A DNA stretch of 64,000 nt from Myxococcales bacterium (GTDB lineage: Bacteria > Myxococcota > Myxococcia > Myxococcales > 40CM-4-68-19). The notes beneath the pieces are model-generated. The model did not search any database and was not told the origin of the DNA. It worked only from the letters and a program-made list of their open reading frames with translations. Positions 450 to 62,236 of the stretch are shown here, one piece after another. The DNA lies in the NCBI GenBank assembly GCA_020201435.1, contig JAIVGS010000002.1, forward strand, positions 8,529 through 72,528. The letters are read 5' to 3'. A program made the translations under genes and the position numbers. Positions within the stretch are counted from its first letter, which is position 1. The number at the start of each line of letters is the position of its first letter.

Positions 450-548
450 ATCTCACCACGGAGGCACGGAGGCCACGGAGAAAAGCTTCGGGTTTCATGA
501 GGTGCAAACCAACCAAATCTCCGTGCTCTCCGCGCCTCCGTGGTGGGC
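450..548. repeat. Hairpin repeat element, copy E1 (ATCTCACC + octamer-reiterated arm, loop, complementary arm + GGTG)
   Basis: The left arm CACCACGGAGGCACGGAGGCCACGGAGA (454-481) is complementary to the right arm TCTCCGTGCTCTCCGCGCCTCCGTGGTG (518-545) at about 25/28 positions. Flanks and architecture match E2-E4. It sits in the spacer between the adaptor stop and the RND start. Confidence 0.75.
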
Positions 549-558
549 AGTTGCAGTT

Positions 559-1767
559 TCATCGGCCGCCTCGCTTCGGGGTGTCGGCCTTGGGGCCTTC
601 GCCCTCGCGTGGAGGGCGTTGCTGACCGCCGCCGGCGGGGCGCGCTGCGACTTTGGCCCCGGCGCGGAGCTGGTTCTGGCCGTCGGAGACGACCTTTTCG
701 CCCTCGGCGAGGCCGCGCGCGACGACGGCCAGGTCGCCCTCGGTGATCTCGACCTCGATCGGCCGCGGCTGGACCGTCTGGTCCTGCTGGATCACGTAGG
801 CGAACGTCCCTTCCGGGCCGCGCTGGGGCACCGTCGAGGGCACCACCAGCGCGTCCTTCCGCGTCGTGAGCAAGAGCCGCGCTTTCACGAACTGGTTCGG
901 CCACAACAGCCGTCCAGGATTCGGCACCACCGCCTTGAGCCGCATCGTCGCGGTCGCCGAGTTGATCTGGTTGTCGACCAGCTCCAGCCGCCCCGACGAG
1001 AGCCGCTGCGCGCCGTCGCGGCTCCAGGCCTCGACCGGCAGCTGCCCGTTCTGCAGCTGCGCCATCACCCGCGGCAGCTCGTCCTGCGGCAGGCTGAAGA
1101 TCACCGCGATCGGATCGAGCTGGGTGATCACCACGATCCCGTTCGCGTCGGACGCGTGGACGAGATTGCCGGGGTCGACCTGCCGGATGCCGGTCACGCC
1201 GTCCGCCGGCGAGCGGATCGACGCGTAATCGAGGTTGAGCCTGGCGGCGTCGATCGTCGCCCGATCGACCTCGACCGCGCCCTCGAGCTGCCCGACCAGC
1301 GCGGCCTGATCGTCGGCCTGCTGGGGCGCGATCAGCTTCTGCTGCGCAAGGTTGCGATATCGTTCGAGATTCAGCTTGGCGCCCTTGAGCTGCGCCACGT
1401 CCCGCGCGAGCGCGCCCTCGCCCTGCTTGAGCTGGTTCTGGAACGGACGCGGATCGATCTGCGCGAGAAGATCGCCCGCGTGCACCGGCTGGCCCTCGCG
1501 GAACAGCACCTTGTCCAGCCGGCCGTCGACCTGCGAACGGACGGTCACGGTCTTGAGAGCGGTCACGGTGCCGAGCCCGTCGAGGAAGATGGGCACGTCC
1601 TTCTTCTGCACCGTCGCCTCGACGACCGGGACCTGCCGATTCGCGGCCTGCTGCTGCTCGCGCGCCGCGCCCGCCTGCTGCGCGCTGGTGCGTTTGCGGA
1701 CGAAGAACGCGATCGCGGCGATCACGACCACCGCGACCACGATCAAAATGACTCTGCGGTCCTTCAC
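559..1767 (-). CDS. Efflux RND periplasmic adaptor subunit (membrane fusion protein, HlyD/MdtA family)
   Basis: ORF 559..1827. It has an N-terminal TM segment (ILIVVAVVVIAAIAFF), then a coiled-coil/lipoyl/beta-barrel type sequence (VRSQVDGRL..., RSPADGVTG, ATMRLKAVVPNP). The start is set at GTG 1767, preceded by GGAGG and 4 nt after the upstream gene's stop. Confidence 0.9.
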   Translation of the reverse strand: MKDRRVILIVVAVVVIAAIAFFVRKRTSAQQAGAAREQQQAANRQVPVVEATVQKKDVPIFLDGLGTVTALKTVTVRSQVDGRLDKVLFREGQPVHAGDLLAQIDPRPFQNQLKQGEGALARDVAQLKGAKLNLERYRNLAQQKLIAPQQADDQAALVGQLEGAVEVDRATIDAARLNLDYASIRSPADGVTGIRQVDPGNLVHASDANGIVVITQLDPIAVIFSLPQDELPRVMAQLQNGQLPVEAWSRDGAQRLSSGRLELVDNQINSATATMRLKAVVPNPGRLLWPNQFVKARLLLTTRKDALVVPSTVPQRGPEGTFAYVIQQDQTVQPRPIEVEITEGDLAVVARGLAEGEKVVSDGQNQLRAGAKVAARPAGGGQQRPPREGEGPKADTPKRGGR

Positions 1768-1771
1768 GGAA

Positions 1772-3046
1772 TTACCTCCGTCCCAGCGCGCGCAACAGCT
1801 GCGCCCGCGCCTTGGACAGCGTGTCATCGGCCTGCACCAGCTGCGCCGCGGCCTGCGTCACCGCGACCTGCGCGTCGCCCAGCTCGATCGCGCTGCCGAC
1901 GCCGACCTGGTAGCGCTGCTCGGCGAGCGTCAGGCGCACCTTGGCGTTGGTCAGCGCTTCCTGCGCGGCCGAGATCGACTCCTTCGCCCCCCGCACCGCG
2001 AGCCGCGCGCTGTCGACGTCGCTGCGCAGCGTCTGCTTGAGGAGGTCGAGCTGGGCGACCTCGCTGCCGACGTTGGCTTCGGCCTCGGCCACCTGCGCGC
2101 GCGTGGAGCCGCCCTGGAAGATCTGCCAGGTGGCGACGACTCCGACGGTCGCGTTCCAGCCGAGGTCGGAGAGGCTGGTGCCGCTCTGGGCGACGCCCGC
2201 GCTGCCGCTGATCGAGGGCCAGTACTGCCCCTGCAGCGATCGGACGGTCAGCTCGTCGGCGTGGACCAGCGCCTCGATCGAGGCGAACTCCGGGCGGTCC
2301 TTGACGGCCTCGTCGTAGAGCGGCTGGGTGTCGGCGTCCTCGTTCTGGACCGCGGGCATGGCTTCGTCGGCGACGTCGTAGTCGGTGGTGCCGAGGATCC
2401 CCATCGCCGAGTTGAGCGTGACCTTCGCGGTCTCGTACGTATTCTGCGAGTTGATCAACGCGACCCGCGCGTTGGCGGTGTCGGTGCGGGCCTGGGCGAG
2501 GTCGATCTCCGGGTGGGTGCCGGCCTTGACGAAGCCTTCGGTCTGCTGGAGGTGCTTCTGCTGGTTGGCGAGCGTGTCGGCAGCGACCTGGACCAGCGCC
2601 TTGTCGGCCCGCGCGTCGAAGTAGGCGGAGCGGACGGTGAAGTCGACCGAAAGCTCGGTGGCGCGCTCGGTCGCGGCCTGCGCGTCGGCCTGGGCCTTCG
2701 CCGCTTCCCAGCGGTTCGGCGTCGAGAAGAAGTCGAACAGAAGCAGCGAGGCGGTGAGGCTGTCGGACCAGGTGTTGCCGCTCGCGACGCCGGTCGGACA
2801 CGGGGCGGTCGGGTCGGTGGAGCAGGAGGCGCTGCGGACCGTCACCGTGCCGGCGCTGTGCTGGAAGCCGGCGCGCGCGGAGACCTGCGGGAGCATCGGC
2901 GCGAACGCCTGCTGCGCGCGGGCGGCGGCTGCCTGGGAGCCGGCGCGGGCCTGGCGGAGCTGCGGCTGGTTGGCGCGAGCGCTGTCGACGGCCTGCTGCA
3001 GCGTGACGACGCGCGCCGCGGCCAGCACCGCCAGGAGCAAATTCAC
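1772..3046 (-). CDS. TolC-family outer membrane efflux protein
   Basis: ORF 1772..3046 (424 aa). It begins with a signal-like N-terminus, LTLQQAVDSARANQPQLRQA, followed by the two repeated alpha-helical/beta halves typical of OMF proteins. It is the first structural gene of the efflux operon. Confidence 0.85.
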   Translation of the reverse strand: MNLLLAVLAAARVVTLQQAVDSARANQPQLRQARAGSQAAAARAQQAFAPMLPQVSARAGFQHSAGTVTVRSASCSTDPTAPCPTGVASGNTWSDSLTASLLLFDFFSTPNRWEAAKAQADAQAATERATELSVDFTVRSAYFDARADKALVQVAADTLANQQKHLQQTEGFVKAGTHPEIDLAQARTDTANARVALINSQNTYETAKVTLNSAMGILGTTDYDVADEAMPAVQNEDADTQPLYDEAVKDRPEFASIEALVHADELTVRSLQGQYWPSISGSAGVAQSGTSLSDLGWNATVGVVATWQIFQGGSTRAQVAEAEANVGSEVAQLDLLKQTLRSDVDSARLAVRGAKESISAAQEALTNAKVRLTLAEQRYQVGVGSAIELGDAQVAVTQAAAQLVQADDTLSKARAQLLRALGRR

Positions 3047-3510
3047 GCGTCACCTCCGGCGGCTGCGGGGCCCTCGTCCGGCGCGAACTCCGCGAGATTG
3101 CGCACCACCTTACGCAACGCGGCGCGGAACATTTCCTGTTCGCGGGCCGACATCCCTTGCACGACGGCGGACCGGACGCCAGTGGCGATGGGGGCGATCC
3201 GTTGGGCGAGCCGCACTCCGGCGGCGGTCAGCGTCACGCGGACGACGCGGCGATCGCGCGGGTCCGGTTCGACCCTCAGCAGGCCGCGCCCGGCGAGGCT
3301 CTCGGCGATGCGCGAGGCGGTCGGAGGATCCATGTGCTGGCGGCGCGCGATCTCGCCGAGTGACGCGCCGGGGAGCTCGCGATTCGCGTTGAGGAACCAG
3401 AATTGCGGCAGAGTGAGGTGGCGGGGGCGGACGGCGCGCTGGACCGCCTGCTTGATGCTGCGGCGGGCGGCGCCGATGAGGAGGCCGACGTATTCTTGTT
3501 CCTGCAACAT
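3043..3510 (-). CDS. MarR family transcriptional regulator
   Basis: This is the C-terminal 155 aa of ORF 3043..3717, starting at MLQEQEYVGLLIGAARR... The winged-helix core reads LTLPQFWFLNANRELPGASLGEIARRQHMDPPTASRIAESLAGRGLLRVEPDPRDRRVVRVTLT. It has a GTGA overlap with the OMP start. The upstream part of the ORF translates a tandem repeat and was rejected. Confidence 0.85.
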   Translation of the reverse strand: MLQEQEYVGLLIGAARRSIKQAVQRAVRPRHLTLPQFWFLNANRELPGASLGEIARRQHMDPPTASRIAESLAGRGLLRVEPDPRDRRVVRVTLTAAGVRLAQRIAPIATGVRSAVVQGMSAREQEMFRAALRKVVRNLAEFAPDEGPAAAGGDA

Positions 3511-3597
3511 TTGCGGTGGCAAGTAACGACTCGGCGGGCGTCGGGTCAAGCGAATGAAACAAAGGGAAACTCGAAAAAAGCAAAGGACGATGCGGCC

Positions 3598-3759
3598 GCA
3601 GTGACAGTCGAAGGCTCGCGCGAGGCTGCTTCTGATTGCTTCTGCGAGAGGGAAGCGAAAAGGAGAAGGAAAACGAAAAGGAGAAGGAAAACGAAAAGGA
3701 GAAGGAGAAGGAAACAAAAGGATTGGGAGCCCTCGCGCCAGCGCTTCGGGCTGTCACTG
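3598..3759. repeat. Long imperfect inverted repeat enclosing a purine-rich tract (marR/clc divergent intergenic region)
   Basis: The left arm GCAGTGACAGTCGAAGGCTCGCGCGAGGCT (3598-3627) pairs with the right arm AGCCCTCGCGCCAGCGCTTCGGGCTGTCACTG (3728-3759). Paired blocks are CAGTGACAG/CTGTCACTG, CGAAG/CTTCG and GCGCGAGG(G)CT/AGCC(C)TCGCGC. Confidence 0.7.
3656..3714 (+). repeat. Tandem 18-bp purine repeat (CGAAAAGGAGAAGGAAAA), 2 perfect units plus an expanded third
   Basis: Read directly: units at 3656-3673, 3674-3691 and 3692-3714. It is embedded in an ~85 nt near-homopurine run on the + strand. It generates the spurious KEKENEKEKEN and FSFSFSFS ORF translations. Confidence 0.9.
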
Positions 3760-3830
3760 TCGCTGCATTGAAAAGCCTTTTGCTGAAATGCGCGACACCG
3801 TACGCGATTCGTGCCAAAGAAGATGCCGCC

Positions 3831-5795
3831 GTGAGCAGGGTGTCTCCGAAACTGCCGTGGGAACGCGCGGTTGTGATGCTGGTCGCGGCGGTCGTCGGCC
3901 TCTACGGCGGCATCGCGGCGGGGCTGTTTGCGGTCTGCATCCGGTTCGTGCAGCTCTTCCTGTTCCGCGGGCGCGAAGTGGCGATGACGCTCTTCGGACC
4001 GGAGCGCGAGATGTGGGTGCGCTATTTCGCCGAGCGGCTGACGGCGGCGCGGTGGCACCTCGAGTTCGCGGCGCTGGCGGCGCTGATTCTCGCGGCGGCG
4101 GTGGTGCTCGACCGGTTGGGGGGCACGCGGCTGCCGGTCTTCGAGGCGCGGCGGCTGCGGGCGGTGGCGCTCGCGGCGTCGCTCGGGCTCGCGCTCTACT
4201 ACCCACTGGTCCTGGTCAAGACGTTCAACGGCACGTTTCACGAGACCGACGGCGGGCTCTACGAGCTGCTCGCGAATGCGCCGCGATGGATCTGGCTGAT
4301 TGCGCCGGCGATCGGGGCGCTGCTCGCGGCGCTGCTCGTCCGACATGTCAGCCCCGAGAGCGGCGGACACGGAGTCGTCGAGGTGATCGAAGCGGTCCAC
4401 GAGCGCACGCCGATCAAGGGCCGGGTCGCGATCTGGAAGTCGCTGGCAGCGGGCCTCGTCATCGGCTCGGGGGGGAGCGCGGGGCGGGAAGGGCCGGTCG
4501 TGCACCTCGGCGGCGCGGTCGCATCGTCCTTGAGCCGCTTTCTCGAATTGCCGCGCAGCGAGACGTCGATCCTGCTCGCGGCCGGAGCCGGGGCGGGGAT
4601 CGCGGCGTCGTTTCAGGCGCCGCTCGCGGGATCGCTGTTTGCGCTGGAGATCGTCCTGGCGGATTTCGACGTCCGACGCTTCGCGCCGGTGGTGCTGGCG
4701 TGCGTGACGGCGACCGCGACCTCGCGCGCGCTGCTCGGCGGCGGAACCGATCTGCGGCCGGTGAGCTGGACGCTGAACCACCCCTCCGAGATCGCGGTCT
4801 ACCTGCTCCTCGGCATCGTCGCGGGACTGTGCGGGATCGTCTACGTCAAGGCCGTCCATGGCGCGGAGGAGCGGATCCACGCGGTCAAGCTCGGGGCGGT
4901 CACCAAAGCGGCGCTCGGCGGGCTCGTGGTCGGCGCCATCGGCCTCGTCGCCCCGCGCGTCCTCGGGACCGGGATCGAGTCGATGAACGCCGCGCTCGCC
5001 GGCCAGCTGACGTTCGCCGCGCTCCTGCTCGCGCTCGTCGCGAAGATGGTCGCGACCTCGGCCACGCTCGGTTCCGGATCGCCGGGCGGCAGCTTTTTTC
5101 CCGCCGTCTTCCTCGGGGCGATGCTCGGCGGCGCCTTCGGCCACGTCGCCCATGCGGCGCTGCCCGGCATCGTCTCGGGCGCCGATGCGTATGCGGCGGT
5201 CGGCATGGGGGCGGTCGTCGCGGGCGCGACGCTCGCGCCGCTGACCGGCGTGCTGATGATGTTCGAGCTGACCGGCAGCTACCAGATCGTGCTGCCGCTG
5301 CTGGTGGCGTGCGGCGTCGCCGCGGCCATCGCCCACGGCGTCCTGGGCGGGTCGATCTACACCATCGGCGCGCGCCGCCGCGGCATCCGGTTGTCGCGAA
5401 GCGGCCCGCAGCTCTCCGATCTCTCCGTCGCGCAAGCGCTCGATCAGGTCGACCCGATCCCGGCCGATCTTCCCTACGCAGAGCTGCTGCGCGTGATCGG
5501 TCCGACGCTGCACGCGGCGTTTCCGGTGGTCGCCGACGCGCAGGGCGTGATCGGCCTGCTCTCGGTCCGCGAGGTCCGGCGCGCGCTGCTCGATCCGGCC
5601 GTCGACAAGTCCTCGACTGCCCGCAGCTTCACCAAGGCCGCGCAATCGCTGCTGCCCGACGACGACCTCGGCACCGCCGTCCAGCGGCTGGCGGAGACGG
5701 GCGAAGCGCTCGTCGTCGACGCCGAAAACCGCCCGGTCGGCATCATCACCCGAGAGGGTATTCTCGACGCTTGGCGCCGCGCGACCGGGACCTAG
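3831..5795 (+). CDS. ClC family chloride channel / H+-Cl- antiporter with C-terminal CBS-domain pair
   Basis: ORF 3636..5795. It carries ClC signatures GSGGSAGREGP, GIAASFQAPLAG and GSPGGSFFP across many TM segments. The C-terminal CBS pair reads (...AFPVVADAQGVIGLLSVREV..., ...ALVVDAENRPVGIITREGIL). The start was chosen at GTG 3831 (ATG 3876 is the alternative), because upstream codons translate the purine repeat. Confidence 0.85.
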   Translation: MSRVSPKLPWERAVVMLVAAVVGLYGGIAAGLFAVCIRFVQLFLFRGREVAMTLFGPEREMWVRYFAERLTAARWHLEFAALAALILAAAVVLDRLGGTRLPVFEARRLRAVALAASLGLALYYPLVLVKTFNGTFHETDGGLYELLANAPRWIWLIAPAIGALLAALLVRHVSPESGGHGVVEVIEAVHERTPIKGRVAIWKSLAAGLVIGSGGSAGREGPVVHLGGAVASSLSRFLELPRSETSILLAAGAGAGIAASFQAPLAGSLFALEIVLADFDVRRFAPVVLACVTATATSRALLGGGTDLRPVSWTLNHPSEIAVYLLLGIVAGLCGIVYVKAVHGAEERIHAVKLGAVTKAALGGLVVGAIGLVAPRVLGTGIESMNAALAGQLTFAALLLALVAKMVATSATLGSGSPGGSFFPAVFLGAMLGGAFGHVAHAALPGIVSGADAYAAVGMGAVVAGATLAPLTGVLMMFELTGSYQIVLPLLVACGVAAAIAHGVLGGSIYTIGARRRGIRLSRSGPQLSDLSVAQALDQVDPIPADLPYAELLRVIGPTLHAAFPVVADAQGVIGLLSVREVRRALLDPAVDKSSTARSFTKAAQSLLPDDDLGTAVQRLAETGEALVVDAENRPVGIITREGILDAWRRATGT

Positions 5796-5905
5796 GTCGG
5801 AGATTCGGGGACACAATACTTATCTCCGACTTTAGCGCGGCCCCTTCCCCCGGCATGTATGACTCCCTGAGTCGGAGTTGAGTATTGTGTCCCCATAACT
5901 CCGAC
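5796..5905. repeat. Nested inverted repeat: two 35-bp hairpin units in inverted orientation separated by 40 bp
   Basis: Unit A (5796-5830) is GTCGGAGATTCGGGGACACAATACTTATCTCCGAC. Unit B (5871-5905) is GTCGGAGTTGAGTATTGTGTCCCCATAACTCCGAC. Each has a perfect 9-bp stem and a 17-nt loop. B matches the reverse complement of A at 30/35 positions. Confidence 0.85.
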
Positions 5906-5923
5906 GTGCATCGGAGGTGGGTG

Positions 5924-7420
5924 ATGGAGAGGTTCAACATCGGGGCGGAGTTGATCGAGCGGAACCTGCGGGAGGGCCGCGGGCGGAGCCCGGCCATCTG
6001 GGCGGCGGGGAAGACGCTGACGTACGGCGAGCTGTCGGCGCTGGTAGACCGGGTGGGCGCCGCGTTTCTGAAGGCGGGAGTGAAGCCGGAGCAGCGCGTG
6101 CTGATGGTGATGCCGGACTCGCCGGAGCTCGCCGCCTGCTATCTCGCGGCGATGAAGATCGGGGCCGTCGCGGTGCCCTGCAATCCGCTGCTGCGGACGG
6201 CTGACTACGCGTATTTCCTCGAGGAATCGCGCGCGGCGCTGGTCGTCACCGCGGCTGCGCTGCGCGAAAAGCTGCCCCGGCACGACAAGCCGATGCTGGT
6301 CACCGGCGTCGACTTCGAGAAAGCGCTCGCCGAAGTTCCCGAGCAGAAACTGGAGGCGGCGCCGACGAGCAAGGACGAGGCCGCGTTCTGGCTCTGGACG
6401 AGCGGCTCGACCGGCAAGCCGAAAGCTGCCGTCCACGCGCACCAGGACTGGCCGCACTGCTGCGAGCTCTACGGGCAAGGCATCCTGAACCTCCAGCCGA
6501 AAGACCGCTGCTACTCGGCTTCCAAGCTCTTCCACGCCTACGGTCTCGGCAACGCGCTCGCCTTCCCGTTCTGGGTCGGCGCGAGCACGATCCTTTCGCC
6601 CGACCGCCCCACCCCCGACGTCGTCTACAAGGCCATCGCGGACGGCCGGCCGACGATCTTCTTCGGCGTCCCCACGCTCTACGCCGCGATGCTGCAGGCA
6701 AAGGGCGATCCGGAGGTGGAGAGCCTGCGCGTCTGCGTCTCGGCCGGCGAGCCGCTCCCGGGCGATCTCTTCAGCCGCTGGAAGTCGCGCTTCGGCACCG
6801 AGATCCTCGACGGAATCGGTTCCACCGAAGTCCTGCACATCTACGTTTCACCCCGAATGGGCGCGGCCAAGCCCGGCTCGACCGGCCTTCCCGTCGACGG
6901 CTACCAGGTCCGTATCGTCGACGAGCTCGGAAACGACGTGCGCGAAGGTGAGACCGGCGACCTCGTCGTCCGCGGCGCCTCGACCGCGCTCTTCTACTGG
7001 AACCGCAAGGACCAGAGCCGCCAGAAGATGCGGGGCGAGTGGTTCTTCTCGGGCGACAAGTTCCGCCAGACCGAGGACGGCGAGTTCCACTACGTCGGCC
7101 GCTCGGACGACATGTTCAAGACCGCGGGCGAGTGGATCTCCCCCGCCGACGTCGAGTCAGCGCTGATCTCACATGGCGCGGTCCTCGAGTGCGCGGTGGT
7201 GGCGAAGAAGAGCGAGGACGGGCTGCTCAGGCCGCGCGCGCACGTCGTCCTCGTCCAGGGCAAGCAGGGCTCGCCCGAGCTCGCCGAGGAGCTCAAGCAG
7301 CACGTCCGCGGCAAGTGCGCGGGCTACATGGTGCCGCGCGACATCGTCTTCGCAACCGAGCTGCCGAAGACGGCGACCGGCAAGATCCAGCGATTCCTGC
7401 TGCGCGACGCGGATGTCTGA
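5924..7420 (+). CDS. AMP-forming acyl-CoA ligase, benzoate-CoA ligase family
   Basis: ORF 5885..7420, start at ATG 5924 after GGAGG. It has the AMP-binding motifs WLWTSGSTGKPKAAVH, YGLGN and GEWFFSGDKF, and a C-terminal PKTATGKIQRF. Overall similarity is to aromatic-acid CoA ligases. Confidence 0.85.
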   Translation: MERFNIGAELIERNLREGRGRSPAIWAAGKTLTYGELSALVDRVGAAFLKAGVKPEQRVLMVMPDSPELAACYLAAMKIGAVAVPCNPLLRTADYAYFLEESRAALVVTAAALREKLPRHDKPMLVTGVDFEKALAEVPEQKLEAAPTSKDEAAFWLWTSGSTGKPKAAVHAHQDWPHCCELYGQGILNLQPKDRCYSASKLFHAYGLGNALAFPFWVGASTILSPDRPTPDVVYKAIADGRPTIFFGVPTLYAAMLQAKGDPEVESLRVCVSAGEPLPGDLFSRWKSRFGTEILDGIGSTEVLHIYVSPRMGAAKPGSTGLPVDGYQVRIVDELGNDVREGETGDLVVRGASTALFYWNRKDQSRQKMRGEWFFSGDKFRQTEDGEFHYVGRSDDMFKTAGEWISPADVESALISHGAVLECAVVAKKSEDGLLRPRAHVVLVQGKQGSPELAEELKQHVRGKCAGYMVPRDIVFATELPKTATGKIQRFLLRDADV

Positions 7421-7778
7421 CCTCCAGGTCGATGGAGCGCGGATCCCCTACCAGGACGCCGGCGGGCCCGGCCCGGCGATCGTCTTTTCGCACGGCCTCC
7501 TCTGGAGGACGGCGATGTACAGGTTCCAGATCGAGGCGTTCCGGAAAGACTTCCGCCCGCATCGCGTACGAGGAGTACGCCGACGCACGACGCACTGCCC
7601 GACGATCGTGACCTCCGGCGCCGAGGACGGCGTCGTTCCGGCACGCAGCGAGCGGACCGCTCCAAAAATCCCGGGCGCGAAGTTCATGTCGATTCCGCGC
7701 CCCGGACACACCTCGAGCATCGAGGAGCCCGAGGCGGTGAACGCCGCACTTCGTGAGTTCTGGTCGCACATCGGGTGA
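7413..7778 (+). pseudogene. alpha/beta hydrolase remnant with an apparent internal deletion (121 aa, no nucleophile elbow)
   Basis: The N-terminus (GPAIVFSHGLLWRTAMYRFQIEAFRKDFR) and C-terminus (PTIVTSGAEDGVVPARSERTAPKIPGAKFMSIPRPGHTSSIEEPEAVNAALREFW) are those of a ~270 aa alpha/beta-fold hydrolase. The middle, including GxSxG, is missing. Confidence 0.5.
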
Positions 7779-7825
7779 CCTTCACTCACAGCGAAAATCC
7801 CCCTCGAAGCGTGTAAGATCTCCTG

Positions 7826-10768
7826 ATGCTGGCGGTAGTTACGGCGTTCGTGCTGCTGGCGGCCGTCCCCGCCGAGCCGCCCGGCCGATTCGCGTTCCGC
7901 AGCTACGCCAGCGAGCAGGGATTGGAGAACCTATCGGTCCTCGCCATCGTCCAGGATCGCGAAGGATTCCTGTGGGTTGCGACCGAGGACGGCCTCTACC
8001 GCTACGACGGCGACCGCTTCCACCGGTTCGGCGCCGAGGACGGCCTGCCGTCCAACCAGATGACCTCGATCGCTCTCGGCGACGACGGCCGGTTGTGGGC
8101 CGGCACGTTCCGCGGCGTGGCGCTCTTCGACCAGGGCCGCTTCCGCCAGGTGGCGAAGTCGCTTCCCGATCTGCTCATCAAAGGGCTCGCCCCGGCCCCC
8201 GGCGGCGCGCTCTGGGTCGCGACCGGCGCGGGGCTTTTCTTCGAGTCGAGCCGCGAAAAATTCGACGCCGTCCCGGGGTGGCCGGCGGCCGTGTCCGCGA
8301 CGGCGGTCTGGGCCGACGCGCGCGGGATCGTCGCCGCCACTCCCGGCCGCCTCTACACGCAAAAAGAGCGACGGTGGGTCGCGCACGAGGCCGAGCCGGA
8401 GCGCATCGACGCGGTCGTCCGCGATCGCCGCGGTACCATCTGGGCGCGCTCCGCCGGCCATCTCTGGGCGCTCGCCGATGGGATGGAAAAGCTGGAGGAC
8501 TTCACCCACGTCCTGCCCGGCTCCAGCGACACCGGGTACCTCTCCCTCGACCAGCAGGGCACCCTCTGGGTCCCGACCGACTCGGGCCTCCTCTACAAGG
8601 AGGAGGGTGGACCGTGGAGCGTGATCGGACCCGCGCAGGGCCTGCCGGCCTCGTGGGCGCGCACCGCGGCCGAGGATCGCGAAGGCTCGATCTGGATCGG
8701 CGTCACCGGCCTGCACCGCGCCGTCGGCCGCGGGCTGTGGCGCGTCTATTCGACCCGCGAAGGGCTGCCCAGCGAGGTGGTGTGGACCGAATGGCGCGAC
8801 AAGAAAGGAGCGCTCTACGTCGGCACCGATCGCGGTCTGGTCCGCGCGGCCAACTCCCGCTTCGAGCTCGTCCGCGGCAGCGAAGGCCACGCCATCCGCT
8901 CGGTGACCCAGCTGAAGGACGGCGCGCTCTGGATGGGCGGCAGCCCGCCGGAACTGCTCAGGATCGACGAGGGCAGGGTCGACCGCTTCCCGATCCGCGC
9001 CCGGAAGGTGTTGACGCTCCTCGCCTCCAGCCGCGACGAGCTGTTCGTCGGCACCGACGGCGGCGGACTGCTCGAGCTGCAGGGCAACGAGCTGGTGCCG
9101 GTCGCGGTCCCCGGCGGCAGCGTGCAGGAGCGCTTCAGCCACGTGATCGAGGATCGGACCGGGCGCATCTGGGCGGCCGGCGAGCTCGGACTCGCCTTCC
9201 GCGGCAAGAACGGCGAGTGGCATCGGCTCGGCACCGCCGACGGCCTGCGCGACGAGCGCACCGCGTACCTGCTCGAGCGCCGCTCGGGCGACATCTGCGT
9301 CGCGTACCGCGAGACGATCGGTTTCTCCTGCTTCCGGCCCACCGCGCAGGGACTGCGCGCCGTGCAGCACATCGACGCGTCGAACGGCCTGCAGAACGCC
9401 CGCGTCTACCTGCTCGGCGAGGACCGCAACGGCCGGCTCTGGGTCGGCACCGGCCAGGGCGCGGACGTCTTCGACGCGCATGGCACCGAGCACTTCGGCC
9501 AGGCGCGCGGCATGGCCGGCGACGACTGCGACGCCAACGCGTTCCTCGCCGATCCCAACGGCGACGTCTGGCTCGGCACCAGCACCGGCCTGGCGCGCTT
9601 CATCGGCGGAAACTACGCAGGGCCCCCCGATCCGCCGCACCCGGTGATCGTCGAGGCCCGGGTCGGCAACTCGCGGCTGCTCGGCAAGGAGCTGCACAAG
9701 GTCGAAGGGCGCAATCCCGCGCTGGAGGTGCACTTCGCGGGCCTCTCGTTCCTCGACGAGGCGCGGGTGCAGCACCAGGTGCGCCTGTTGCCGCTCGAGC
9801 CGGAATGGCGGCAGGCCAGCGTGCGCGAGGCGCGGTACAGCGCGCTCGGGCCGGGCAGCTACGTGTTCGAGGTGCGGGCGCGGATGGCGCCGGGCGCCTG
9901 GAGCGAGCCGGCGCGGCTCGATTTCGTCCTTTTGCCGCAGTGGTGGCAGACGGTATGGTTCCGGGTCTCCGTCTCCCTGGCCGCGGCGGCGCTGCTCGGG
10001 TGGGTCGTCAACTGGCGCGTGCGGCGGCTGCAGCAGCGCAATCGCGAGCTGGAAAGCCAGGTGAACGTCCGGACCGGCGAGCTGGCCTCGGCGAACCAGG
10101 CGCTGCGGGATCTGGCGGTGAGCGACCCGCTGACCGGGCTCAAGAACCGGCGATACCTCGAGCTGGCGATGCCGGAGACGGTCGCGCAGGTGATGCGCCA
10201 CCACCGCGGCCCGAGACCGGCCAAAGCCAACGCCGACCTGCTGCTGCTGATCATCGACCTCGACGATTTCAAGAGGATCAACGACACCTGGGGCCACGGC
10301 GCGGGCGACCGCGTGCTGCAGCAGGCCGGGAAACTGGTGGCGCAGATCTGCCGCGAGTCGGACTCGCCGGTGCGCTGGGGCGGCGAGGAGTTCGTCGTCG
10401 TCGCGCGCAACGCCGACCGCGCGATGGCCGCGAGCGTGGCGGAGCGCATCTGCGAGCTGTTCCGCGAGCACGACTTCGACGTCGGCGGCGGACAGACGGT
10501 CGACGTCACCTGCTCGGTGGGGCTGGCGGCGTTTCCGTTCGCCGACCTGCCGTGGGAGGACGTGATCGAGCTCGCCGACCATTGCCTCTACGCGGCGAAG
10601 CGCGCGGGCAAGGACTGCTGGGCGATGGCGACCCCTTCTCCGGCGCTGCAGGCCGCCGACTTGAGCCGCCGACTGCGCGGCGAATTCGCCCAGCTCGTCT
10701 CCGAGCGCCAGATCGTGCTCACGCTCTCCGCAGAAGTCCCGTCCGTCCTCGCGCAGGCCGGCCACTAG
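7826..10768 (+). CDS. Sensor diguanylate cyclase: periplasmic two-component-regulator propeller repeats + Y_Y_Y-like region + TM + GGDEF
   Basis: ORF 7826..10768 (980 aa). It has a signal peptide, many repeats of the GLPSN...D..G.LWVGT type, and a TM segment (WFRVSVSLAAAALLGWVV). The GGDEF domain reads DPLTGLKNRRY...IIDLDDFKRINDTWGHGAGD...RWGGEEFVVV. Confidence 0.9.
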   Translation: MLAVVTAFVLLAAVPAEPPGRFAFRSYASEQGLENLSVLAIVQDREGFLWVATEDGLYRYDGDRFHRFGAEDGLPSNQMTSIALGDDGRLWAGTFRGVALFDQGRFRQVAKSLPDLLIKGLAPAPGGALWVATGAGLFFESSREKFDAVPGWPAAVSATAVWADARGIVAATPGRLYTQKERRWVAHEAEPERIDAVVRDRRGTIWARSAGHLWALADGMEKLEDFTHVLPGSSDTGYLSLDQQGTLWVPTDSGLLYKEEGGPWSVIGPAQGLPASWARTAAEDREGSIWIGVTGLHRAVGRGLWRVYSTREGLPSEVVWTEWRDKKGALYVGTDRGLVRAANSRFELVRGSEGHAIRSVTQLKDGALWMGGSPPELLRIDEGRVDRFPIRARKVLTLLASSRDELFVGTDGGGLLELQGNELVPVAVPGGSVQERFSHVIEDRTGRIWAAGELGLAFRGKNGEWHRLGTADGLRDERTAYLLERRSGDICVAYRETIGFSCFRPTAQGLRAVQHIDASNGLQNARVYLLGEDRNGRLWVGTGQGADVFDAHGTEHFGQARGMAGDDCDANAFLADPNGDVWLGTSTGLARFIGGNYAGPPDPPHPVIVEARVGNSRLLGKELHKVEGRNPALEVHFAGLSFLDEARVQHQVRLLPLEPEWRQASVREARYSALGPGSYVFEVRARMAPGAWSEPARLDFVLLPQWWQTVWFRVSVSLAAAALLGWVVNWRVRRLQQRNRELESQVNVRTGELASANQALRDLAVSDPLTGLKNRRYLELAMPETVAQVMRHHRGPRPAKANADLLLLIIDLDDFKRINDTWGHGAGDRVLQQAGKLVAQICRESDSPVRWGGEEFVVVARNADRAMAASVAERICELFREHDFDVGGGQTVDVTCSVGLAAFPFADLPWEDVIELADHCLYAAKRAGKDCWAMATPSPALQAADLSRRLRGEFAQLVSERQIVLTLSAEVPSVLAQAGH

Positions 10769-10890
10769 AAAAGCAACATCTCACCGCGAAGGCGCGAAGA
10801 CGCGAAGGGGTTGGGACTCTTGCAACAATCGCCGCTCCGCGAACATCCCGAAACCTTCGCGTCTTCGCGCCTTCGCGGTGCGCTTTTGTA
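10769..10890. repeat. Hairpin repeat element, copy E2
   Basis: There is a perfect 27-bp stem: CACCGCGAAGGCGCGAAGACGCGAAGG (10782-10808) pairs with CCTTCGCGTCTTCGCGCCTTCGCGGTG (10854-10880). The outer flanks AAAAGC/GCTTTT are also complementary. It lies between the DGC stop and the marR-2 start. Confidence 0.85.
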
Positions 10891-10931
10891 GTTGGTTGTA
10901 AGAGCAACGAATTCGGTGTACGTGCCGGGGG

Positions 10932-11369: not shown

Positions 11370-11383
11370 CGCCGTGGTCGAAT

Positions 11384-12544: not shown

Positions 12545-12604
12545 CCGTCCATGCTAGCGGATGTGGCGGGCGTTCAGAAAGCGACACAGGCCTCGAAGCG
12601 AACG

Positions 12605-12631
12605 AAGGCCGCATCGGTCGGATGCGGCCTT
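12605..12631 (-). terminator. Candidate intrinsic terminator hairpin downstream of 12697..13620
   Basis: AAGGCCGCATC-GGTCG-GATGCGGCCTT forms an 11-bp perfect stem with a 5-nt loop, about 66 nt past the minus-strand stop. The trailing sequence on the minus strand is only weakly T-rich (TTCGTTCGCTTCG). Confidence 0.5.
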
Positions 12632-12696
12632 CTAATCGGAACGGACCGGCGCTGACGCGCCGGGGCCCCGGACCTCAGCCTTCCCGGGCTCCAAGC

Positions 12697-46797: not shown

Positions 46798-46910
46798 CCA
46801 AAAAGCAAAATCTCACCGCGAAGACGCGAAGGGTTAAGTTCGCAGGCCCAACGTCGCCGAGCAACCAACCCGAAACCTTTGCGCCTTCGCGCCTTCGCGG
46901 TGCGCAGTCG
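46798..46910. repeat. Hairpin repeat element, copy E3
   Basis: AAAAAGCAAAATCTCACCGCGAAGACGCGAAGGG (arm 46814-46833) pairs with CCTTTGCGCCTTCGCGCCTTCGCGGTG (46876-46902). It lies between the lon stop and the kinase start. Confidence 0.8.
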
Positions 46911-49214: not shown

Positions 49215-49234
49215 ATTCTTCTCCTTCGCTGCGG

Positions 49235-49320: not shown

Positions 49321-49360
49321 GTCGCTGCTTGGATGCTCGGCGGCCGTCGGAGATTCCGGC

Positions 49361-50324: not shown

Positions 50325-50376
50325 GTGTGGTTTCCCTCCAAAGAGCGGCGTATTCGGGCATGAGCGGGCCTCGTGG

Positions 50377-51297: not shown

Positions 51298-51336
51298 GGC
51301 ACGCAAATTTACCGATTCGTGTCCACATTGTGAGCC

Positions 51337-52995: not shown

Positions 52996-53014
52996 GGTCC
53001 GAAGCCTGTAAGAT

Positions 53015-53857: not shown

Positions 53858-53861
53858 GCCG

Positions 53862-56455: not shown

Positions 56456-56564
56456 CGCCGGCGGTCTCCTATCACGACGCATCGACGCCGTCCCACGTCC
56501 GCGGGACCGAAAGTCTCGGTCCGGAAAGTCTGATCGAAAGCGCCGATCAAATAAGCTGCCGGGC

Positions 56565-57413
56565 GTGCTGCTGCGCCTCGTCCGCGATTTCCGCCGCGCG
56601 ATGGACCTGTCGCTGGTGCTCGATCAGGAGAAGATCGAGCACCAGCTGCGCAGCGTCGGCGAGGAGCAGTGGGCGCTCACGATCGGCGACGAGGCGGACG
56701 CCGAGCGGGCAGAGAAGGCTTTGATCGCGTTCGAGCGGGAAAATCCGCCGGTCGCAAGCCGCAAGCCGCAGGCCCCGCTGTCCGACGGCATCGGCGCCGG
56801 CGTGGTCTTCGGCCTCGCGCTGCTCGCGCTGCAGATCTGGACTGGCCCCGAATCGGACAACGCGTGGTTCGTCCGCGGCAGCGCCGAGGCATCGCAGATC
56901 GTGCGCGGCGAGTGGTGGCGCGCGATCACCGCGCTCACGCTGCACGCCGACGCCGGACATGCGGTCGGAAACGCGCTCCTCGGCGGCCTGTTGCTCACCC
57001 TGCTCGCCCGGCGCCTCGGCTCCGGCGTCGCCTCCGCGGCGATGTTGCTCGCCGGCATGCTCGGCACGTTTGCCGCCGCCGAGCTGATGCGGCGCCACTT
57101 CGTTTCCGTCGGCGCCTCGACCGCGGTGTTCGGCGGGCTCGCCGAGCTCGCCGCGCTGCAGGCGGCCGATCCCGAATCGCGCCGGCGCGCCTGGATCCCT
57201 CTCGGGGCCGGCGTCGCGCTGCTCGGGTTTCTCGGATCGTCGAAGCGCGCCGATCTCGCCGGCCATCTCTGCGGTTTCGCCGCCGGCGTCGCGATCGGCT
57301 TCGCGGTCTCGCGCCTTCCACGGCTGCGGAGCAAGGCCGCCCAGTCGGCGCTCGCCTGCGCCGCCGCATGTACGCCGGTCATCGCCTGGCTGCGCGCTCT
57401 CTTGGTCAACTGA
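56565..57413 (+). CDS. Rhomboid family intramembrane serine protease
   Basis: This is the C-terminal part of ORF 56217..57413. Motifs are WWRAITALTLHAD, the catalytic VGASTAVFGG and AGHLCGFAAG. The start is GTG 56565 (ATG 56601 is the alternative). Confidence 0.7.
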   Translation: MLLRLVRDFRRAMDLSLVLDQEKIEHQLRSVGEEQWALTIGDEADAERAEKALIAFERENPPVASRKPQAPLSDGIGAGVVFGLALLALQIWTGPESDNAWFVRGSAEASQIVRGEWWRAITALTLHADAGHAVGNALLGGLLLTLLARRLGSGVASAAMLLAGMLGTFAAAELMRRHFVSVGASTAVFGGLAELAALQAADPESRRRAWIPLGAGVALLGFLGSSKRADLAGHLCGFAAGVAIGFAVSRLPRLRSKAAQSALACAAACTPVIAWLRALLVN

Positions 57414-57417
57414 CCAA
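57402..57417. repeat. TTGGTCA-NN-TGACCAA family copy (TTGGTCAACTGACCAA, exact)
   Basis: Read directly. It contains the rhomboid stop codon (57411-57413) and ends 20 nt before the glgB ATG. Confidence 0.9.
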
Positions 57418-57437
57418 CGCGGTCCATATTCCCCGCC

Positions 57438-59312
<1,875 letters not shown>

Positions 59313-59404
59313 CGCTGCTGCACGCCGCCGAGCGCTCGGGCCGCAGTGCAGGCAGGCGACCGCCCGCAATTGTAGCGGTGTCGCGCAGGCCACAGCTTTC
59401 CCAC

Positions 59405-60367
59405 ATGCGCTTCGGCTTCCTGATGGATCCGCTCGAGCACGTCCGCGTCGACCACGACACCACCTTCGCGCTCATGCTCGAGTGTCGCCGCCGCGGCATC
59501 GAGGTGCGCGAGCTGCGGCAGGAGTGGCTCTTCCTCGCCGGCGGACGGGCGCGGTCGCGGATGCGGACCGTCGACGTCGATCGCGGCGGCGATCCGCATT
59601 TCCGCGTGCTCGCCGACTGCGACGCGCCGCTCGCCGATCTCGACGTGCTCTTCCTGCGCAAGGATCCGCCGGTCGACGTCGACTTCCTCCGCGCGACGCA
59701 GATGGTCGAGCTCGGCCCCGGACCGCTCTGGATCAATCATCCCGCCGGCCTGCGCGCCGCCAACGAGAAGCTGCTCGCGCTGCGCTTCGCCGATCTCGGT
59801 CCACCGTCGATCGTGACCCGGGAGATGACGCGGCTGCGTTCGTTCATCGCGGCTGCCGGAGGCGACGCGGTCGTGAAACCGCTCGATGGCTGCGGAGGGC
59901 AGGGCGTGGTCCGCGTGCGCGAGGGCGATCCGAACTTCAACGCGCTGCTCGAGATCGCGACCGGAGGCGGGCGCACGCCGGTCCTGGCGCAGTCGTTTCT
60001 GCCGGCGGTCCGCGAAGGTGACAAGCGCATCATCGTCCTAGACGGCGAGCCGGTGGGCGCGGTCCTGCGGGTGCCGAAGCAAGGCGAGCTGCGGGCCAAC
60101 TTCGCGGCCGGCGGTCGCGCCGCCGCGGCGCCGATCACCGCGCGCGATCGCGAGATCTGCCGCCGGCTCGCGCCCGATCTGCGCGCGCTCGGCCTCTGGC
60201 TCGCCGGGATCGACGTCATCGGCGGCAAGCTCACCGAGGTGAACGTGACCAGCCCGACCGGCCTCGTCGAGATCGACGCGCTCTCCGGAGGCTCGCTCGA
60301 GGCGCGGGTGATCGATTTCGCGCTCGCTCGCGCCGGATTGCGCGGCCGGGCCGCCGCGGGTCTGTGA
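59405..60367 (+). CDS. gshB: Glutathione synthetase (prokaryotic ATP-grasp type)
   Basis: This is the C-terminal 320 aa of ORF 56669..60367. Motifs are MRFGFLMDPLEHVRVDHDTTFALMLE, VVKPLDGCGGQGV, GDKRIIVLDGEPVGA and LTEVNVTSPTG. Confidence 0.85.
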   Translation: MRFGFLMDPLEHVRVDHDTTFALMLECRRRGIEVRELRQEWLFLAGGRARSRMRTVDVDRGGDPHFRVLADCDAPLADLDVLFLRKDPPVDVDFLRATQMVELGPGPLWINHPAGLRAANEKLLALRFADLGPPSIVTREMTRLRSFIAAAGGDAVVKPLDGCGGQGVVRVREGDPNFNALLEIATGGGRTPVLAQSFLPAVREGDKRIIVLDGEPVGAVLRVPKQGELRANFAAGGRAAAAPITARDREICRRLAPDLRALGLWLAGIDVIGGKLTEVNVTSPTGLVEIDALSGGSLEARVIDFALARAGLRGRAAAGL

Positions 60368-60963
60368 GGCTGGTGAACGCCGTTCACCGCGCGGCCGCGA
60401 TCCTTCTCGCCGGCGCTGCCTGCGGCAACGACGCGGGCGCCGGCGCCACCTTCGAGGGGTCCATCCACGGCTTGGCCATGCAGCCAAAAGACGCCATCTC
60501 CTCGCCGGCGACGGTCGCGTTCTCCTCCGGCTCGGCGCCAGTCGCCGCGATCGTGATCGGCGACGTGCCCCAACTCTGCGCGAAGGTGAGCGCCAACCTC
60601 GAGCCCAGGAGCTCGACGCTGCTGCTGCTCTTCCTCGCCGACGTGAACCCGGTCAGCGGCGCGATCCAGCCGGCGGCCGGAACCGGATCGTTTCCGGTCT
60701 TCAGGATCGGCAACGGCGCCGCCCCACCTCACTTCGCCATGGCCTCGTTCGGAGCGAACGACGCGACCTGCCACGCCATCGACGCCGATTCCGCCGACGC
60801 GGTCACCGGCTCCGTCACGCTCACCGCCAACGGGGCGGGGGCGTACAGCGGCATGTACGATCTCACCTTCGACAGCGGCGACCACGTCACCGGTTCGTTC
60901 CACACCGGTACCTGCCAGGCTTTGAGCGACTACCTCACCCGGTTCACGCACGATTGCGGGTGA
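60364..60963 (+). CDS. Hypothetical secreted protein / possible lipoprotein
   Basis: ORF 60364..60963 (199 aa). It has a signal-like N-terminus ending ILLAGAACGN (weak lipobox), Cys pairs, and an ATGA-type overlap with gshB. Confidence 0.55.
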   Translation: MRLVNAVHRAAAILLAGAACGNDAGAGATFEGSIHGLAMQPKDAISSPATVAFSSGSAPVAAIVIGDVPQLCAKVSANLEPRSSTLLLLFLADVNPVSGAIQPAAGTGSFPVFRIGNGAAPPHFAMASFGANDATCHAIDADSADAVTGSVTLTANGAGAYSGMYDLTFDSGDHVTGSFHTGTCQALSDYLTRFTHDCG

Positions 60964-60968
60964 AGTTC

Positions 60969-61003
60969 TTGGTCAAATGACCAAATCGTTCAAATCGCTC
61001 AAG
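60969..61003. repeat. TTGGTCA-NN-TGACCAA family, long (35-nt) form: TTGGTCAAATGACCAAATCGTTCAAATCGCTCAAG
   Basis: Read directly. It is intergenic, between two convergent stops (60963 and 61015). Confidence 0.9.
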
Positions 61004-61014
61004 CGGGCTCGAGT

Positions 61015-61521
61015 TCAACGGCGTGGCTTGACGGGCTCGAGCCGGATCTGCGTCCGCTCGTCCTCGTTCTCGTCGGCGACCTCGGTGAGCCGGTTGCCGG
61101 CGCGGCGGAGCCGCCGGCAGAGCTCGCGGTTGATGTTCTGCAGCACCAGCACGTAGCCTTTCACGTCGTCGCGGTAGAGCTGGTACAGGTCGAGGTTGGT
61201 CAGCTCCCAGAGGCGCGCGTCGCGCTCGACGACCACCGTGAACGGCCGCGGCTGCATCTCGATCAGCGTCATCTCGCCGAAGAAATCTCCCTCGAAGAAC
61301 CGCATCAACCGCACGGTCCCGCCCGACCCGCCGGCCTGGTTCGCGACCAGCTCACCGGAGTGGACGACGTACATCGACTTGCCGGCCTCGCCCTCGCGGA
61401 AGACGTCCGAGCCGGTCTCGTAGCTGCGCTCGACCAGCATCTTCACCAGCCGGTTCATCGTCTCGTCCGGCAGGCCGCCGAAGAACGGCGTGCGCGAGAG
61501 GAATTCCTTCAGCTCGCTCAT
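61015..61521 (-). CDS. Cyclic-nucleotide-binding domain protein (single domain)
   Basis: ORF 61015..61785, from M89. The sequence reads FLSRTPFFGGLPDETMNRLVKML...GDFFGEMTLIE...RPFTVVV. No HTH is seen. Confidence 0.75.
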   Translation of the reverse strand: MSELKEFLSRTPFFGGLPDETMNRLVKMLVERSYETGSDVFREGEAGKSMYVVHSGELVANQAGGSGGTVRLMRFFEGDFFGEMTLIEMQPRPFTVVVERDARLWELTNLDLYQLYRDDVKGYVLVLQNINRELCRRLRRAGNRLTEVADENEDERTQIRLEPVKPRR

Positions 61522-61582
61522 GATCGGACTGTAGCGCACCCGGGGCGCGGCGGCCGCGGCGGCGGCCGGATAACTTGGCCGG

Positions 61583-62128
61583 ATGACCAAGGCCGACAAG
61601 GCGAGCGACCTGTCCGAGGCCGCGCTGGCCCTCGACCACGAGCTGCGCCGCTTCGAAGACCTCGCCGCGCAGGCCGCCCGGATCCGCCTCAACACCGAAA
61701 AGAACGTCGAGCGCGCGACCGACGCGCTCTCTCGCGCCGCCGAGAGCCAGGACCGGATCAACGCCATCGTCCAGCAGTTGGTCAAGGCGGTGGGTGCGGC
61801 GCGTCAGAAGCAGGAATCCGACGCCGCCGCGCTGATCGCCCGCGCCCAGGAGATCGCGGCCCGCCGCAAGCAGTTTGCCGACGTGCTGCAGCGGATGGCC
61901 GGCCTTGGTCAAATGGCCAAGGAAGTGCAGGAGCTGCTCAAGTCCGGCCCCGGGAACTTCGACGAGATCCAGCAGCGGATGCAGAGAGTGGCCGACGACG
62001 CCGCCGAGATCGGCAAGGCAGCGCAAGACCAGGACATGGAAGACCTCTCCCGCCAGGCCGACGTCCTCCGCCAGCAGGTCCTCTCCGCGAAGAACAAGGT
62101 TTCGATCCTCGCCGCCAAAAAAAGCTGA
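61583..62128 (+). CDS. Hypothetical coiled-coil protein
   Basis: ORF 61583..62128 (181 aa). It is Ala/Gln/Glu-rich with a heptad-like sequence and good codon bias. It contains one palindrome copy. Confidence 0.55.
   Translation: MTKADKASDLSEAALALDHELRRFEDLAAQAARIRLNTEKNVERATDALSRAAESQDRINAIVQQLVKAVGAARQKQESDAAALIARAQEIAARRKQFADVLQRMAGLGQMAKEVQELLKSGPGNFDEIQQRMQRVADDAAEIGKAAQDQDMEDLSRQADVLRQQVLSAKNKVSILAAKKS
61905..61920. repeat. TTGGTCA-NN-TGACCAA family copy (TTGGTCAAATGGCCAA, 1 mismatch)
   Basis: Read directly, inside the coiled-coil gene. It encodes LGQMAK. Confidence 0.75.
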
Positions 62129-62236
62129 ACTGCGCACCGCGAAGACGCGAAGGGGCTGGGTTTGGCAACCAACGCCGCCACGCATGAACCGGAAACCTTT
62201 GCGCCTTCGCGCCTTCGCGGTGCGATTTTGTTTTAG
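62118..62236. repeat. Hairpin repeat element, copy E4
   Basis: The arm CACCGCGAAGACGCGAAGGGG (62135-62154) pairs with CCTTTGCGCCTTCGCGCCTTCGCGGTG (62196-62222). It lies between two convergent stops (62128 and 62240). Confidence 0.8.

Follow-up and report, generated by a model that had tools for sequence, protein, structure and literature searches.

Among the described systems closest to the elements reported here are the REPINs, doublets of REP (repetitive extragenic palindromic) sequences that are mobilised by REP-associated tyrosine transposases (RAYTs), and that form ~100-nt extragenic hairpins (Bertels & Rainey 2011, PMC3116915). Four inverted repeats of similar size, E1 to E4, lie in a 64,000-nt stretch of Myxococcales DNA (contig JAIVGS010000002.1, positions 8,529 to 72,528; hereafter the window), which was matched through its Lon protein to the metagenome-assembled genome GCA_046262975.1, and belong with relatives that share further features with REPINs: a non-autonomous short form exists alongside a single small enzyme gene flanked by repeats, and singlets, doublets and clusters all occur. 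They differ from REPINs in the enzyme, which is a PD-(D/E)XK (Cas4/RecB-like) nuclease rather than an HUH tyrosine transposase, in the arms, where two to four direct heptamer repeats take the place of a small palindrome tagged GTAG/CGTC, and in the gene, which is multicopy and in many cases decayed; a nearly uniform arm motif is shared by at least 10 phyla.

The Correia/NEMIS and ERIC elements (PMC10969869) also are short gene-less intergenic inverted repeats, co-transcribed with their neighbours and derived by internal deletion from longer elements, with long stems that are potential RNase III substrates. Unlike these, the elements described here have reiterated-heptamer ends, a parent of only ~0.5 kb that is not of the DDE class, and no detected target-site duplication. 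A likeness is also seen with the intervening sequences (IVS) of 23S rRNA genes, such as the 428-nt Coxiella IVS with its S23p open reading frame (ORF) (PMC4990558), which are selfish inserts of ~0.4–0.5 kb with one small ORF bracketed by inverted repeats, the pairing of which into a long transcript stem allows the insert to be tolerated. However, the IVSs are located in helices of rRNA, from which RNase III removes them, and encode a four-helix bundle, whereas our elements lie between protein-coding genes and carry a nuclease. Intergenic direct repeats of heptamers are found in cyanobacteria as the STRR repeats. Two to six intergenic heptamers, for which no vehicle is known, likewise make up the TAACTGA repeats that distant phyla share (Beggiatoaceae, Cyanobacteria and Bacteroidetes; PMC4679880), but these are plain direct repeats of another unit, located immediately upstream of start codons and lacking both an inverted partner and a gene. 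Intrinsic (Rho-independent) terminators resemble E1–E4 as G+C-rich stems 3′ of a stop codon, sometimes with a short T-run; however, their loops are of 3–8 nt and are followed directly by a U-tract, whereas E1–E4 have stems of 16–27 bp, loops of 38–47 nt, short or absent U-tracts, and relatives that are often inside operons.

We consider that E1–E4 are probably miniature, gene-less members of a cross-phylum inverted-repeat family, whose short form arose by internal deletion of the gene and which constitutes selfish DNA. The elements are MITE/REPIN-like in kind (MITE, miniature inverted-repeat transposable element), and differ by enzyme class, arm construction, breadth and an apparent absence of target duplication. 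Five observations form the basis of this reading: a shared architecture, a linked gene, two size classes, deletion derivatives and site polymorphism. The full-length element would be ~0.45–0.6 kb long and consist of a purine arm, a 120–145-residue GxxExxY/PDDEXK_3 gene and the complementary arm; the short form would have lost the gene by internal deletion, and would persist or spread as a hairpin-forming inverted repeat of ~70–200 nt. Both would occupy short intergenic spacers, usually a few nucleotides from a stop codon and often in operons, and would be gained, lost and replaced over short evolutionary distances. The heptamer arrays presumably serve as recognition sites for the GxxExxY nuclease, which may act in trans on DNA to mobilise both forms. 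By virtue of its length, the stem would fold the insert out of the transcript and hold the flanking stop and start codons near each other, such that operons tolerate the insert, and any effects on mRNA ends would be a by-product. E1–E4 themselves presumably descend from gene-bearing copies and may be, or may formerly have been, mobilised in trans by such a nuclease.

Arm pairs across phyla and the gene between them

An 18-nt arm pattern scanned against one genome per species matches at least 119 loci in, among others, Myxococcota, Planctomycetota, Chloroflexota, Acidobacteriota, Verrucomicrobiota, Nitrospirota, Nitrospinota, Cyanobacteria, Bacteroidota, Betaproteobacteria, Armatimonadota and FCPU426, and the family spans at least 10 bacterial phyla; some IMG/VR contigs also carry the arm architecture. 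Although a random 18-mer is expected to match the scanned DNA ~140 times by chance, most of the arm matches nevertheless carry the whole architecture, i.e. a (T)TCAC/GAAC cap, two to four units of C-R-C-N-R-A-G plus 1–3 nt, a loop, the complementary arm, and GTGA(A)/GTTC. The cap variants in the family are TCAC/GAAC and GTGAA/GTTCA, and both ends of the element read AAAA.TTT(C/A)AC-core. There are 96 hairpins among the arm-sampled loci, 45 of them with 3+3 units. Conservation across phyla extends to four of the seven core positions, and the remainder vary even within one arm.

Over all loci, the spacing between arms is bimodal, with 112 elements at no more than 150 nt, 50 at 350–650 nt, and none at 200–350 nt. 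About 60% of elements are within 30 nt of a stop codon (scored on ORFs of at least 100 codons) compared with 11% of random positions, and most gene-bearing copies point in the same direction as the gene upstream of them.

Some loci have arms in other arrangements. In three Chloroflexota loci (L091, 620–1000; L011, 2230–2400; L105, 6000–6230) there are head-to-tail arrays of solo arms without an inverted partner. The module is TTCAC-[3 heptamers]-GTTTTCTGTTGGGG, and each has its own heptamer variant (CGCGAAG, CGCGGAG, CACAGAG or CGCAGAG); neither a hairpin nor a deletion model explains these arrays. In L041 (3420–3840) a 100-nt unit is present in four tandem copies, each containing one solo pyrimidine arm and, distinct from it, a small hairpin, GGTTCGCATC..GATGCGAAC.

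All-against-all clustering of 4,543 ORFs from the arm-sampled loci shows that the only recurrent arm-enclosed gene is GxxExxY (TIGR04256, E = 1e-37; PF13366, PDDEXK_3), and no other recurrent cargo was found between arms. The other recurrent neighbours belong to common families only (histidine kinases, response regulators, RND pumps, and short-chain dehydrogenases/reductases), and no transposase family recurs near the elements at these loci. In reciprocal sampling, 80 metagenome loci were found by the GxxExxY protein alone, 75 of which include both flanks; an arm was counted if reiterated and within 150 nt of the gene on its side. A purine arm upstream together with a pyrimidine arm downstream is present in 60 of the 75, but in only 4 of 144 control windows. 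In 49 of the 60 elements the two arms share one majority core, even though it differs between elements (e.g. CGCGAAG, CACAGAG, CACGAAG, CGCAGAG, CACGGAG, CACCAAG). The gene abuts both arms tightly, with no intervening loop sequence.

Arm-flanked GxxExxY genes are also present in cultured bacteria: in Bacteroides finegoldii downstream of radA, in Sphingomonas parapaucimobilis between fabD and fabG, in Bernardetia, and in Gemmatirosa, where a gene-less copy is next door. One contig (L206) contains a full copy with an internal-deletion derivative on each side, and these derivatives retain either the first 26 codons of the gene, or its first five and last 30. Frameshifted or truncated arm-flanked genes occur at four other loci (L005, 1033–1427; L092, 2648–3027; L008, 3285–3605; L088, 1702–2170), consistent with decay of individual copies.

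The GxxExxY/PDDEXK_3 family is very large (32,855 clusters at 50% identity); it is annotated as being of unknown function, and mixed-phylum clades have been noted (PMC3424549). The invariant residues are H19, the GxxExxY motif, R66, D68, E78 and K80, and the protein looks to be an active nuclease, judging from the invariance of D68, E78 and K80 and a nuclease-like predicted fold. The structure model has a pLDDT (predicted local distance difference test) of 89, and its best fold matches are Cas4 and RecB/lambda-exonuclease-type DNA nucleases, although these are weak (E = 1.6e-4, template-modelling score ~0.45–0.48) and place the fold rather than the mechanism. No matches were found in the PDB by sequence, or in PHROGs or PADLOC.

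Several variants of the gene were noted. Two IMG/VR contigs (L228 and L230) encode distant GxxExxY proteins (35–38% identity) flanked by units CGGTTCAT... and CATTTGTTT..., ending GGTGAT or GATGA; retention of the architecture while the units change suggests co-evolution of nuclease and arms. In many Anaerolineae (P0121–P0240; L138–L144) one GxxExxY lineage is located at what is apparently the same junction of two co-oriented genes, in more than 100 clusters with 86–100% identity. Some family representatives (P0337–P0348 and others) are 240–295 residues long with two GxxExxY domains, and may be either tandem elements that are read through or genuine fusions.

The most serious alternative is that the hairpin is primary and older and is kept for reasons of its own, with the GxxExxY gene a later invader homing into its loops, such that the short forms are targets rather than derivatives. 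Short forms do outnumber gene-bearing ones by ~16:1 among the arm-sampled loci, most loops have no detectable gene remnant, solo-arm arrays exist without a gene, and the Myxococcota subfamily has conserved loop motifs of its own. However, the L206 short forms were made by internal deletion of the gene, the gene is packed tightly against both arms with no loop sequence beside it, the arm spacing has no intermediate class, and the units change together with divergent nuclease subfamilies, as fits co-evolution of gene and arms. We therefore regard the invasion of a pre-existing hairpin as unlikely.

No published or curated description of the arms, or of their link to GxxExxY, was found in the open-access papers searched, none of which gives the arm sequences or reports repeats flanking GxxExxY, and a 2024 review of MITEs does not mention these phyla. 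Rfam covariance models have no matches in the window at the gathering score, and permissive settings with E2 gave only chance-level matches. The sequence-only reading of the window was thus right, as far as these searches reach, in being unable to name a described family, and its suggestion of REP/MITE-like elements is sharpened to a cross-phylum family with gene-bearing and gene-less classes, deletion derivatives and turnover of sites. A broader proposal, which we advance tentatively as possible but short of probable, is that GxxExxY genes and their arms constitute an unrecognised superfamily of ~0.5 kb autonomous mobile elements, in which a Cas4/RecB-like PD-(D/E)XK nuclease replaces the DDE, HUH or serine/tyrosine recombinase, and insertion is stop-adjacent, tolerated in operons and without target-site duplication. 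Such a superfamily would extend to at least 10 phyla and ~33,000 protein clusters at 50% identity, with E1–E4 as MITE-like offspring.

Turnover of sites and pairing of the arms

Presence or absence at an orthologous intergenic site was checked at the junction of lon and a kinase gene, where E3 resides. Among seven related Myxococcales this junction is polymorphic, with the element absent from three and present in four, in three very different versions (Table 1). The versions in the window and in its closest relative by Lon identity (L218) have common outer flanks, yet not one unit of either arm is the same in the two, which is beyond independent point mutation and implies replacement or conversion from another copy. 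Similarly, the fabD–fabG junction is filled in one Sphingomonas species and is ~30 nt long in another. The high genomic copy number implied by four copies in 64 kb was not established; ~111 kb of related genomes contain no copy outside of the orthologous lon–kinase site.

On the + strand, the predicted folding energies are –62.8 kcal/mol for E1 (z = –7.8 relative to shuffles), –80.0 kcal/mol for E2 (z = –10.0), –43.7 kcal/mol for E3 (z = –2.7) and –59.1 kcal/mol for E4 (z = –5.4); the minus strand of E3 gives –60.5 kcal/mol (z = –4.2). The perfect 27-bp stem previously described for E2 is reproduced in the fold prediction. In an alignment of the window copies with four related copies from other loci, pairing is present in 94% of cells and 7 of 20 pairs are changed on both sides, which none of 500 shuffles reach. 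However, on the sense strand of 50 gene-bearing elements there are 58 G.U and 48 A.C mismatches (p = 0.38), i.e. no bias, and since the arms are only ~85% complementary (86.5% in short and 84.3% in long forms, a marginal difference), nothing points to an RNA helix being under selection. Conservation of the loops does not extend to the wider family. The conserved entity looks, from these comparisons, like an inverted pair of heptamer arrays, as for protein-binding terminal repeats.

These data bear on a second alternative, in which the elements serve the host as RNA hairpins that terminate transcription intrinsically in both directions or stabilise the 3′ ends of mRNA, have evolved or been retained for gene expression, and resemble each other across genomes through a shared functional need. 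Their proximity to stop codons, the very stable stems, and the A-runs to the left and T-runs to the right in the Myxococcota subfamily (GCAAAAGC...GCTTTTGC), with UUUU following E2 and E4, would all fit. However, the loops are unlike those of intrinsic terminators, the U-runs are at most 4–5 nt, and the + strands of E1 and E3 have no T-run; a terminator scan at E2, itself uninformative, reported only an inner hairpin of six pairs with the tail CTTTTGTAGT. Copies are also present in operons where termination would be harmful (membrane fusion–RND in the window, fabD–fabG in Sphingomonas), relatives being routinely so placed, the lon–kinase site is empty in close relatives, the transcribed strand lacks a G.U over A.C bias, and full-length relatives carry a gene. 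We conclude that a host role of this type is very unlikely, and neither the structured-RNA nor the terminator function originally suggested is upheld.

Another possibility is that the arms are arrayed sites to which a host protein binds as DNA or RNA (e.g. a nucleoid or regulatory factor recognising CRCNRAG) and that their inversion is incidental. The pattern of conserved and variable core positions, the imperfect complementarity of the arms and the occurrence of solo arms are what such arrays would show, but there is no adjacent protein conserved across phyla except GxxExxY, and the presence/absence at orthologous sites and the deletion derivatives point to the dynamics of an element; the chance that this explains the family appears remote. 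That the elements are REPs or REPINs mobilised by a RAYT (an IS200-like tyrosine transposase), or MITEs of the classical kind that derive from a DDE insertion sequence, is scarcely credible despite their REPIN-like size and extragenic hairpin doublets (PMC3116915), their MITE-like terminal inverted repeats, and the longer parent sharing their ends that is expected of a MITE and is found here as gene-bearing copies with derivatives beside a full copy, because REP units are 20–40-nt palindromes tagged GTAG or CGTC at one end (PMC3733652) and here the ends read ..TCTCACC / GGTGCG.. with neither tag, the arms are direct-repeat arrays, no transposase family (tyrosine or other) recurs near the elements at the 119 arm-sampled loci, no target-site duplication is evident, and the enclosed gene encodes a PD-(D/E)XK nuclease.

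Several observations weigh against the interpretation of E1–E4 as gene-less derivatives of a nuclease-mobilised family. Among 159 elements no target-site duplication is seen at any offset (best 3-mer 12%, best 4-mer 5%), a defined insertion signature was not found, and no transposition intermediate is known. No GxxExxY gene was seen in the window or in ~111 kb of related Myxococcales DNA, leaving a partner enzyme in this genome unproven, and the loops of E1–E4 contain no recognisable gene remnant. The protein-sampled loci are relatives of one query (47–93% identity), and more distant GxxExxY members carry other unit sequences. The arms of gene-bearing copies, being only ~84% complementary, fit protein-binding repeats but do not thereby identify the binder, and the stable retention in Anaerolineae is unusual for a purely selfish gene and could mean a host function.

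The four copies in the window

All four copies are located at the coordinates first assigned to them (Table 1), and they are the only ones in the 64 kb: a regular expression for reiterated C.C..AG units found no other paired or 3-unit arm, and nhmmer profiles of the copies found no fifth. With a permissive expression there are 23 two-unit matches compared with 16 expected, and these are regarded as chance matches. With loops of 38–47 nt and no gene remnant, E1–E4 are assigned to the gene-less size class.

Table 1. Elements and arms in the window, and the lon–kinase junction in related Myxococcales. Strands given for elements are the putative sense strands; arms are as read on the + strand.
Feature	Coordinates	Strand	Lon identity to window	Description
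E1	~441–553	–		Gene-less, CACGGAG-type units; fills the spacer between membrane-fusion gene (stop 559) and RND pump gene (putative TTG start 447–449), both minus strand
E1 purine arm	457–480	+		CACGGAGG CACGGAGGC CACGGAG, 3 units
E1 pyrimidine arm	519–542	+		CTCCGTG CT CTCCGCG C CTCCGTG, 3 units, then GTGGG
E2	10769–10890	–		Gene-less, CGCGAAG-type units; directly after TAG of GGDEF-domain gene (7826–10768, +), upstream of MarR gene
E2 purine arm	10785–10807	+		CGCGAAGG CGCGAAGA CGCGAAG
E2 pyrimidine arm	10855–10877	+		CTTCGCGT CTTCGCGC CTTCGCG, then GTGCG
E3	46798–46910	–		Gene-less; between lon (stop 46914) and Ser/Thr kinase-WD40 gene (start 46764), both minus strand; site polymorphic in relatives
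E3 purine arm	46817–46831	+		CGCGAAGA CGCGAAG, 2 units
E3 pyrimidine arm	46877–46899	+		CTTTGCGC CTTCGCGC CTTCGCG, 3 units
E4	62118–62236	–		Gene-less; convergent stops on either side, of DUF2780-like gene (TGA 62126–62128) and hybrid histidine kinase gene (stop 62240)
E4 purine arm	62138–62152	+		CGCGAAGA CGCGAAG
E4 pyrimidine arm	62197–62219	+		CTTTGCGC CTTCGCGC CTTCGCG
lon–kinase site, window (E3)				CGCGAAG type, loop 45 nt
lon–kinase site, L218			92%	CACAGAG type, 2 units, loop 19 nt
lon–kinase site, L122			90%	Empty, 25 nt
lon–kinase site, L121			83%	4 units
lon–kinase site, L219			80%	Empty, 38 nt
lon–kinase site, L220			79%	4 units, loop ~90 nt
lon–kinase site, L221			74%	Empty, 50 nt

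The common architecture proposed in the sequence-only reading needs some revision. The A-rich lead is shared by E1–E3, but E4 lacks ATCTCACC and has ACTGCGCACC instead, and the loop block CCGAAACC, given as conserved in all, is absent from E1. The arms are indeed reiterated, but the repeating core in E2–E4 is not an octamer and instead is the heptamer CGCGAAG with a 1–2 nt spacer. E1 and E2 have 3+3 units each, whereas E3 and E4 are asymmetric, with two units on the left and three on the right. The loops, measured at 38–47 nt, extend slightly below the 40–50 nt reported. The cap pair of the window type is GCAAAAGCACAC...GTGTGCTTTTGC, seen as CTCAC-C...G-GTG in E1–E3 and as GCAC-C...G-GTG in E4. 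E1 differs from the other copies in its unit on both arms (CACGGAGG / CCTCCGTG). By contrast, E3 and E4 have identical arms at unrelated loci, including the 2/3-unit asymmetry and one T variant, with diverged loops, and this arm identity indicates copying within the window genome.

The intergenic position of each copy and its context are as originally described, from third-codon-position G+C (GC3) frame analysis and Pfam, and the distance to a stop codon is 0–8 nt in every case. At E1 the stem is flanked by the membrane-fusion stop codon, 5 nt away on one side, and by the putative TTG start of the RND gene, 4 nt away on the other, such that the ribosome-binding region of the RND gene would fall within the stem. 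RND efflux pump genes also adjoin elements at five unrelated loci (L006, L050, L100, L104 and L114). The single orientation of the four copies is supported by the common orientation of their loops. The sense strand is likely to be the minus strand, by analogy with gene-bearing copies, in which the purine arm is followed by GTTT...; for E1 this is suggested by a purine arm followed by ATTTGGTTGG, as in related copies. Minus-strand sense agrees with the surrounding operon at E1 and E3 but disagrees at E2.

Implications and other repeats of the window

The association with arms gives testable biology to GxxExxY/PDDEXK_3, a very large family of unknown function, as a selfish and probably mobile cassette, and the elements explain widespread spurious small ORFs and strong intercistronic hairpins in metagenome-assembled genomes of many phyla. 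Should the nuclease prove to be the enzyme that mobilises them, these would be among the smallest autonomous elements known and would add a catalytic class that is new to bacterial transposition or homing. The cultured carriers (B. finegoldii, S. parapaucimobilis, Bernardetia and Gemmatirosa) make experiments feasible. Several other candidates were dropped for poor fit: RNA-binding arrays of the CsrA/Hfq/TRAP type, Chi-like sequences, DNA uptake sequences, integron attC sites and the GCGAAGC mini-hairpin.

The window contains a second, unrelated repeat, a 16-bp near-palindrome (TTGGTCAAATGACCAA) present at 11 sites with no more than three mismatches (16025, 16559, 19463, 19775, 20098, 42577, 42784, 57402, 60969, 61575 and 61905), where 0.05 would be expected. 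In many cases ATCG(N)TCAAATCGCTCA comes next, and the repeat may be an operator or else a further small element of the dispersed kind. A 36-nt inverted repeat (5796–5905; 86% complementary, 38-nt spacer) lies between the co-oriented genes at 3636–5795 and 5885–7420 and is a hairpin of a type unlike E1–E4. Finally, the start of the ORF at 3636–5795 contains ~3.7 copies of an 18-nt tandem repeat, AGGAAAACGAAAAGGAGA (3649–3714).

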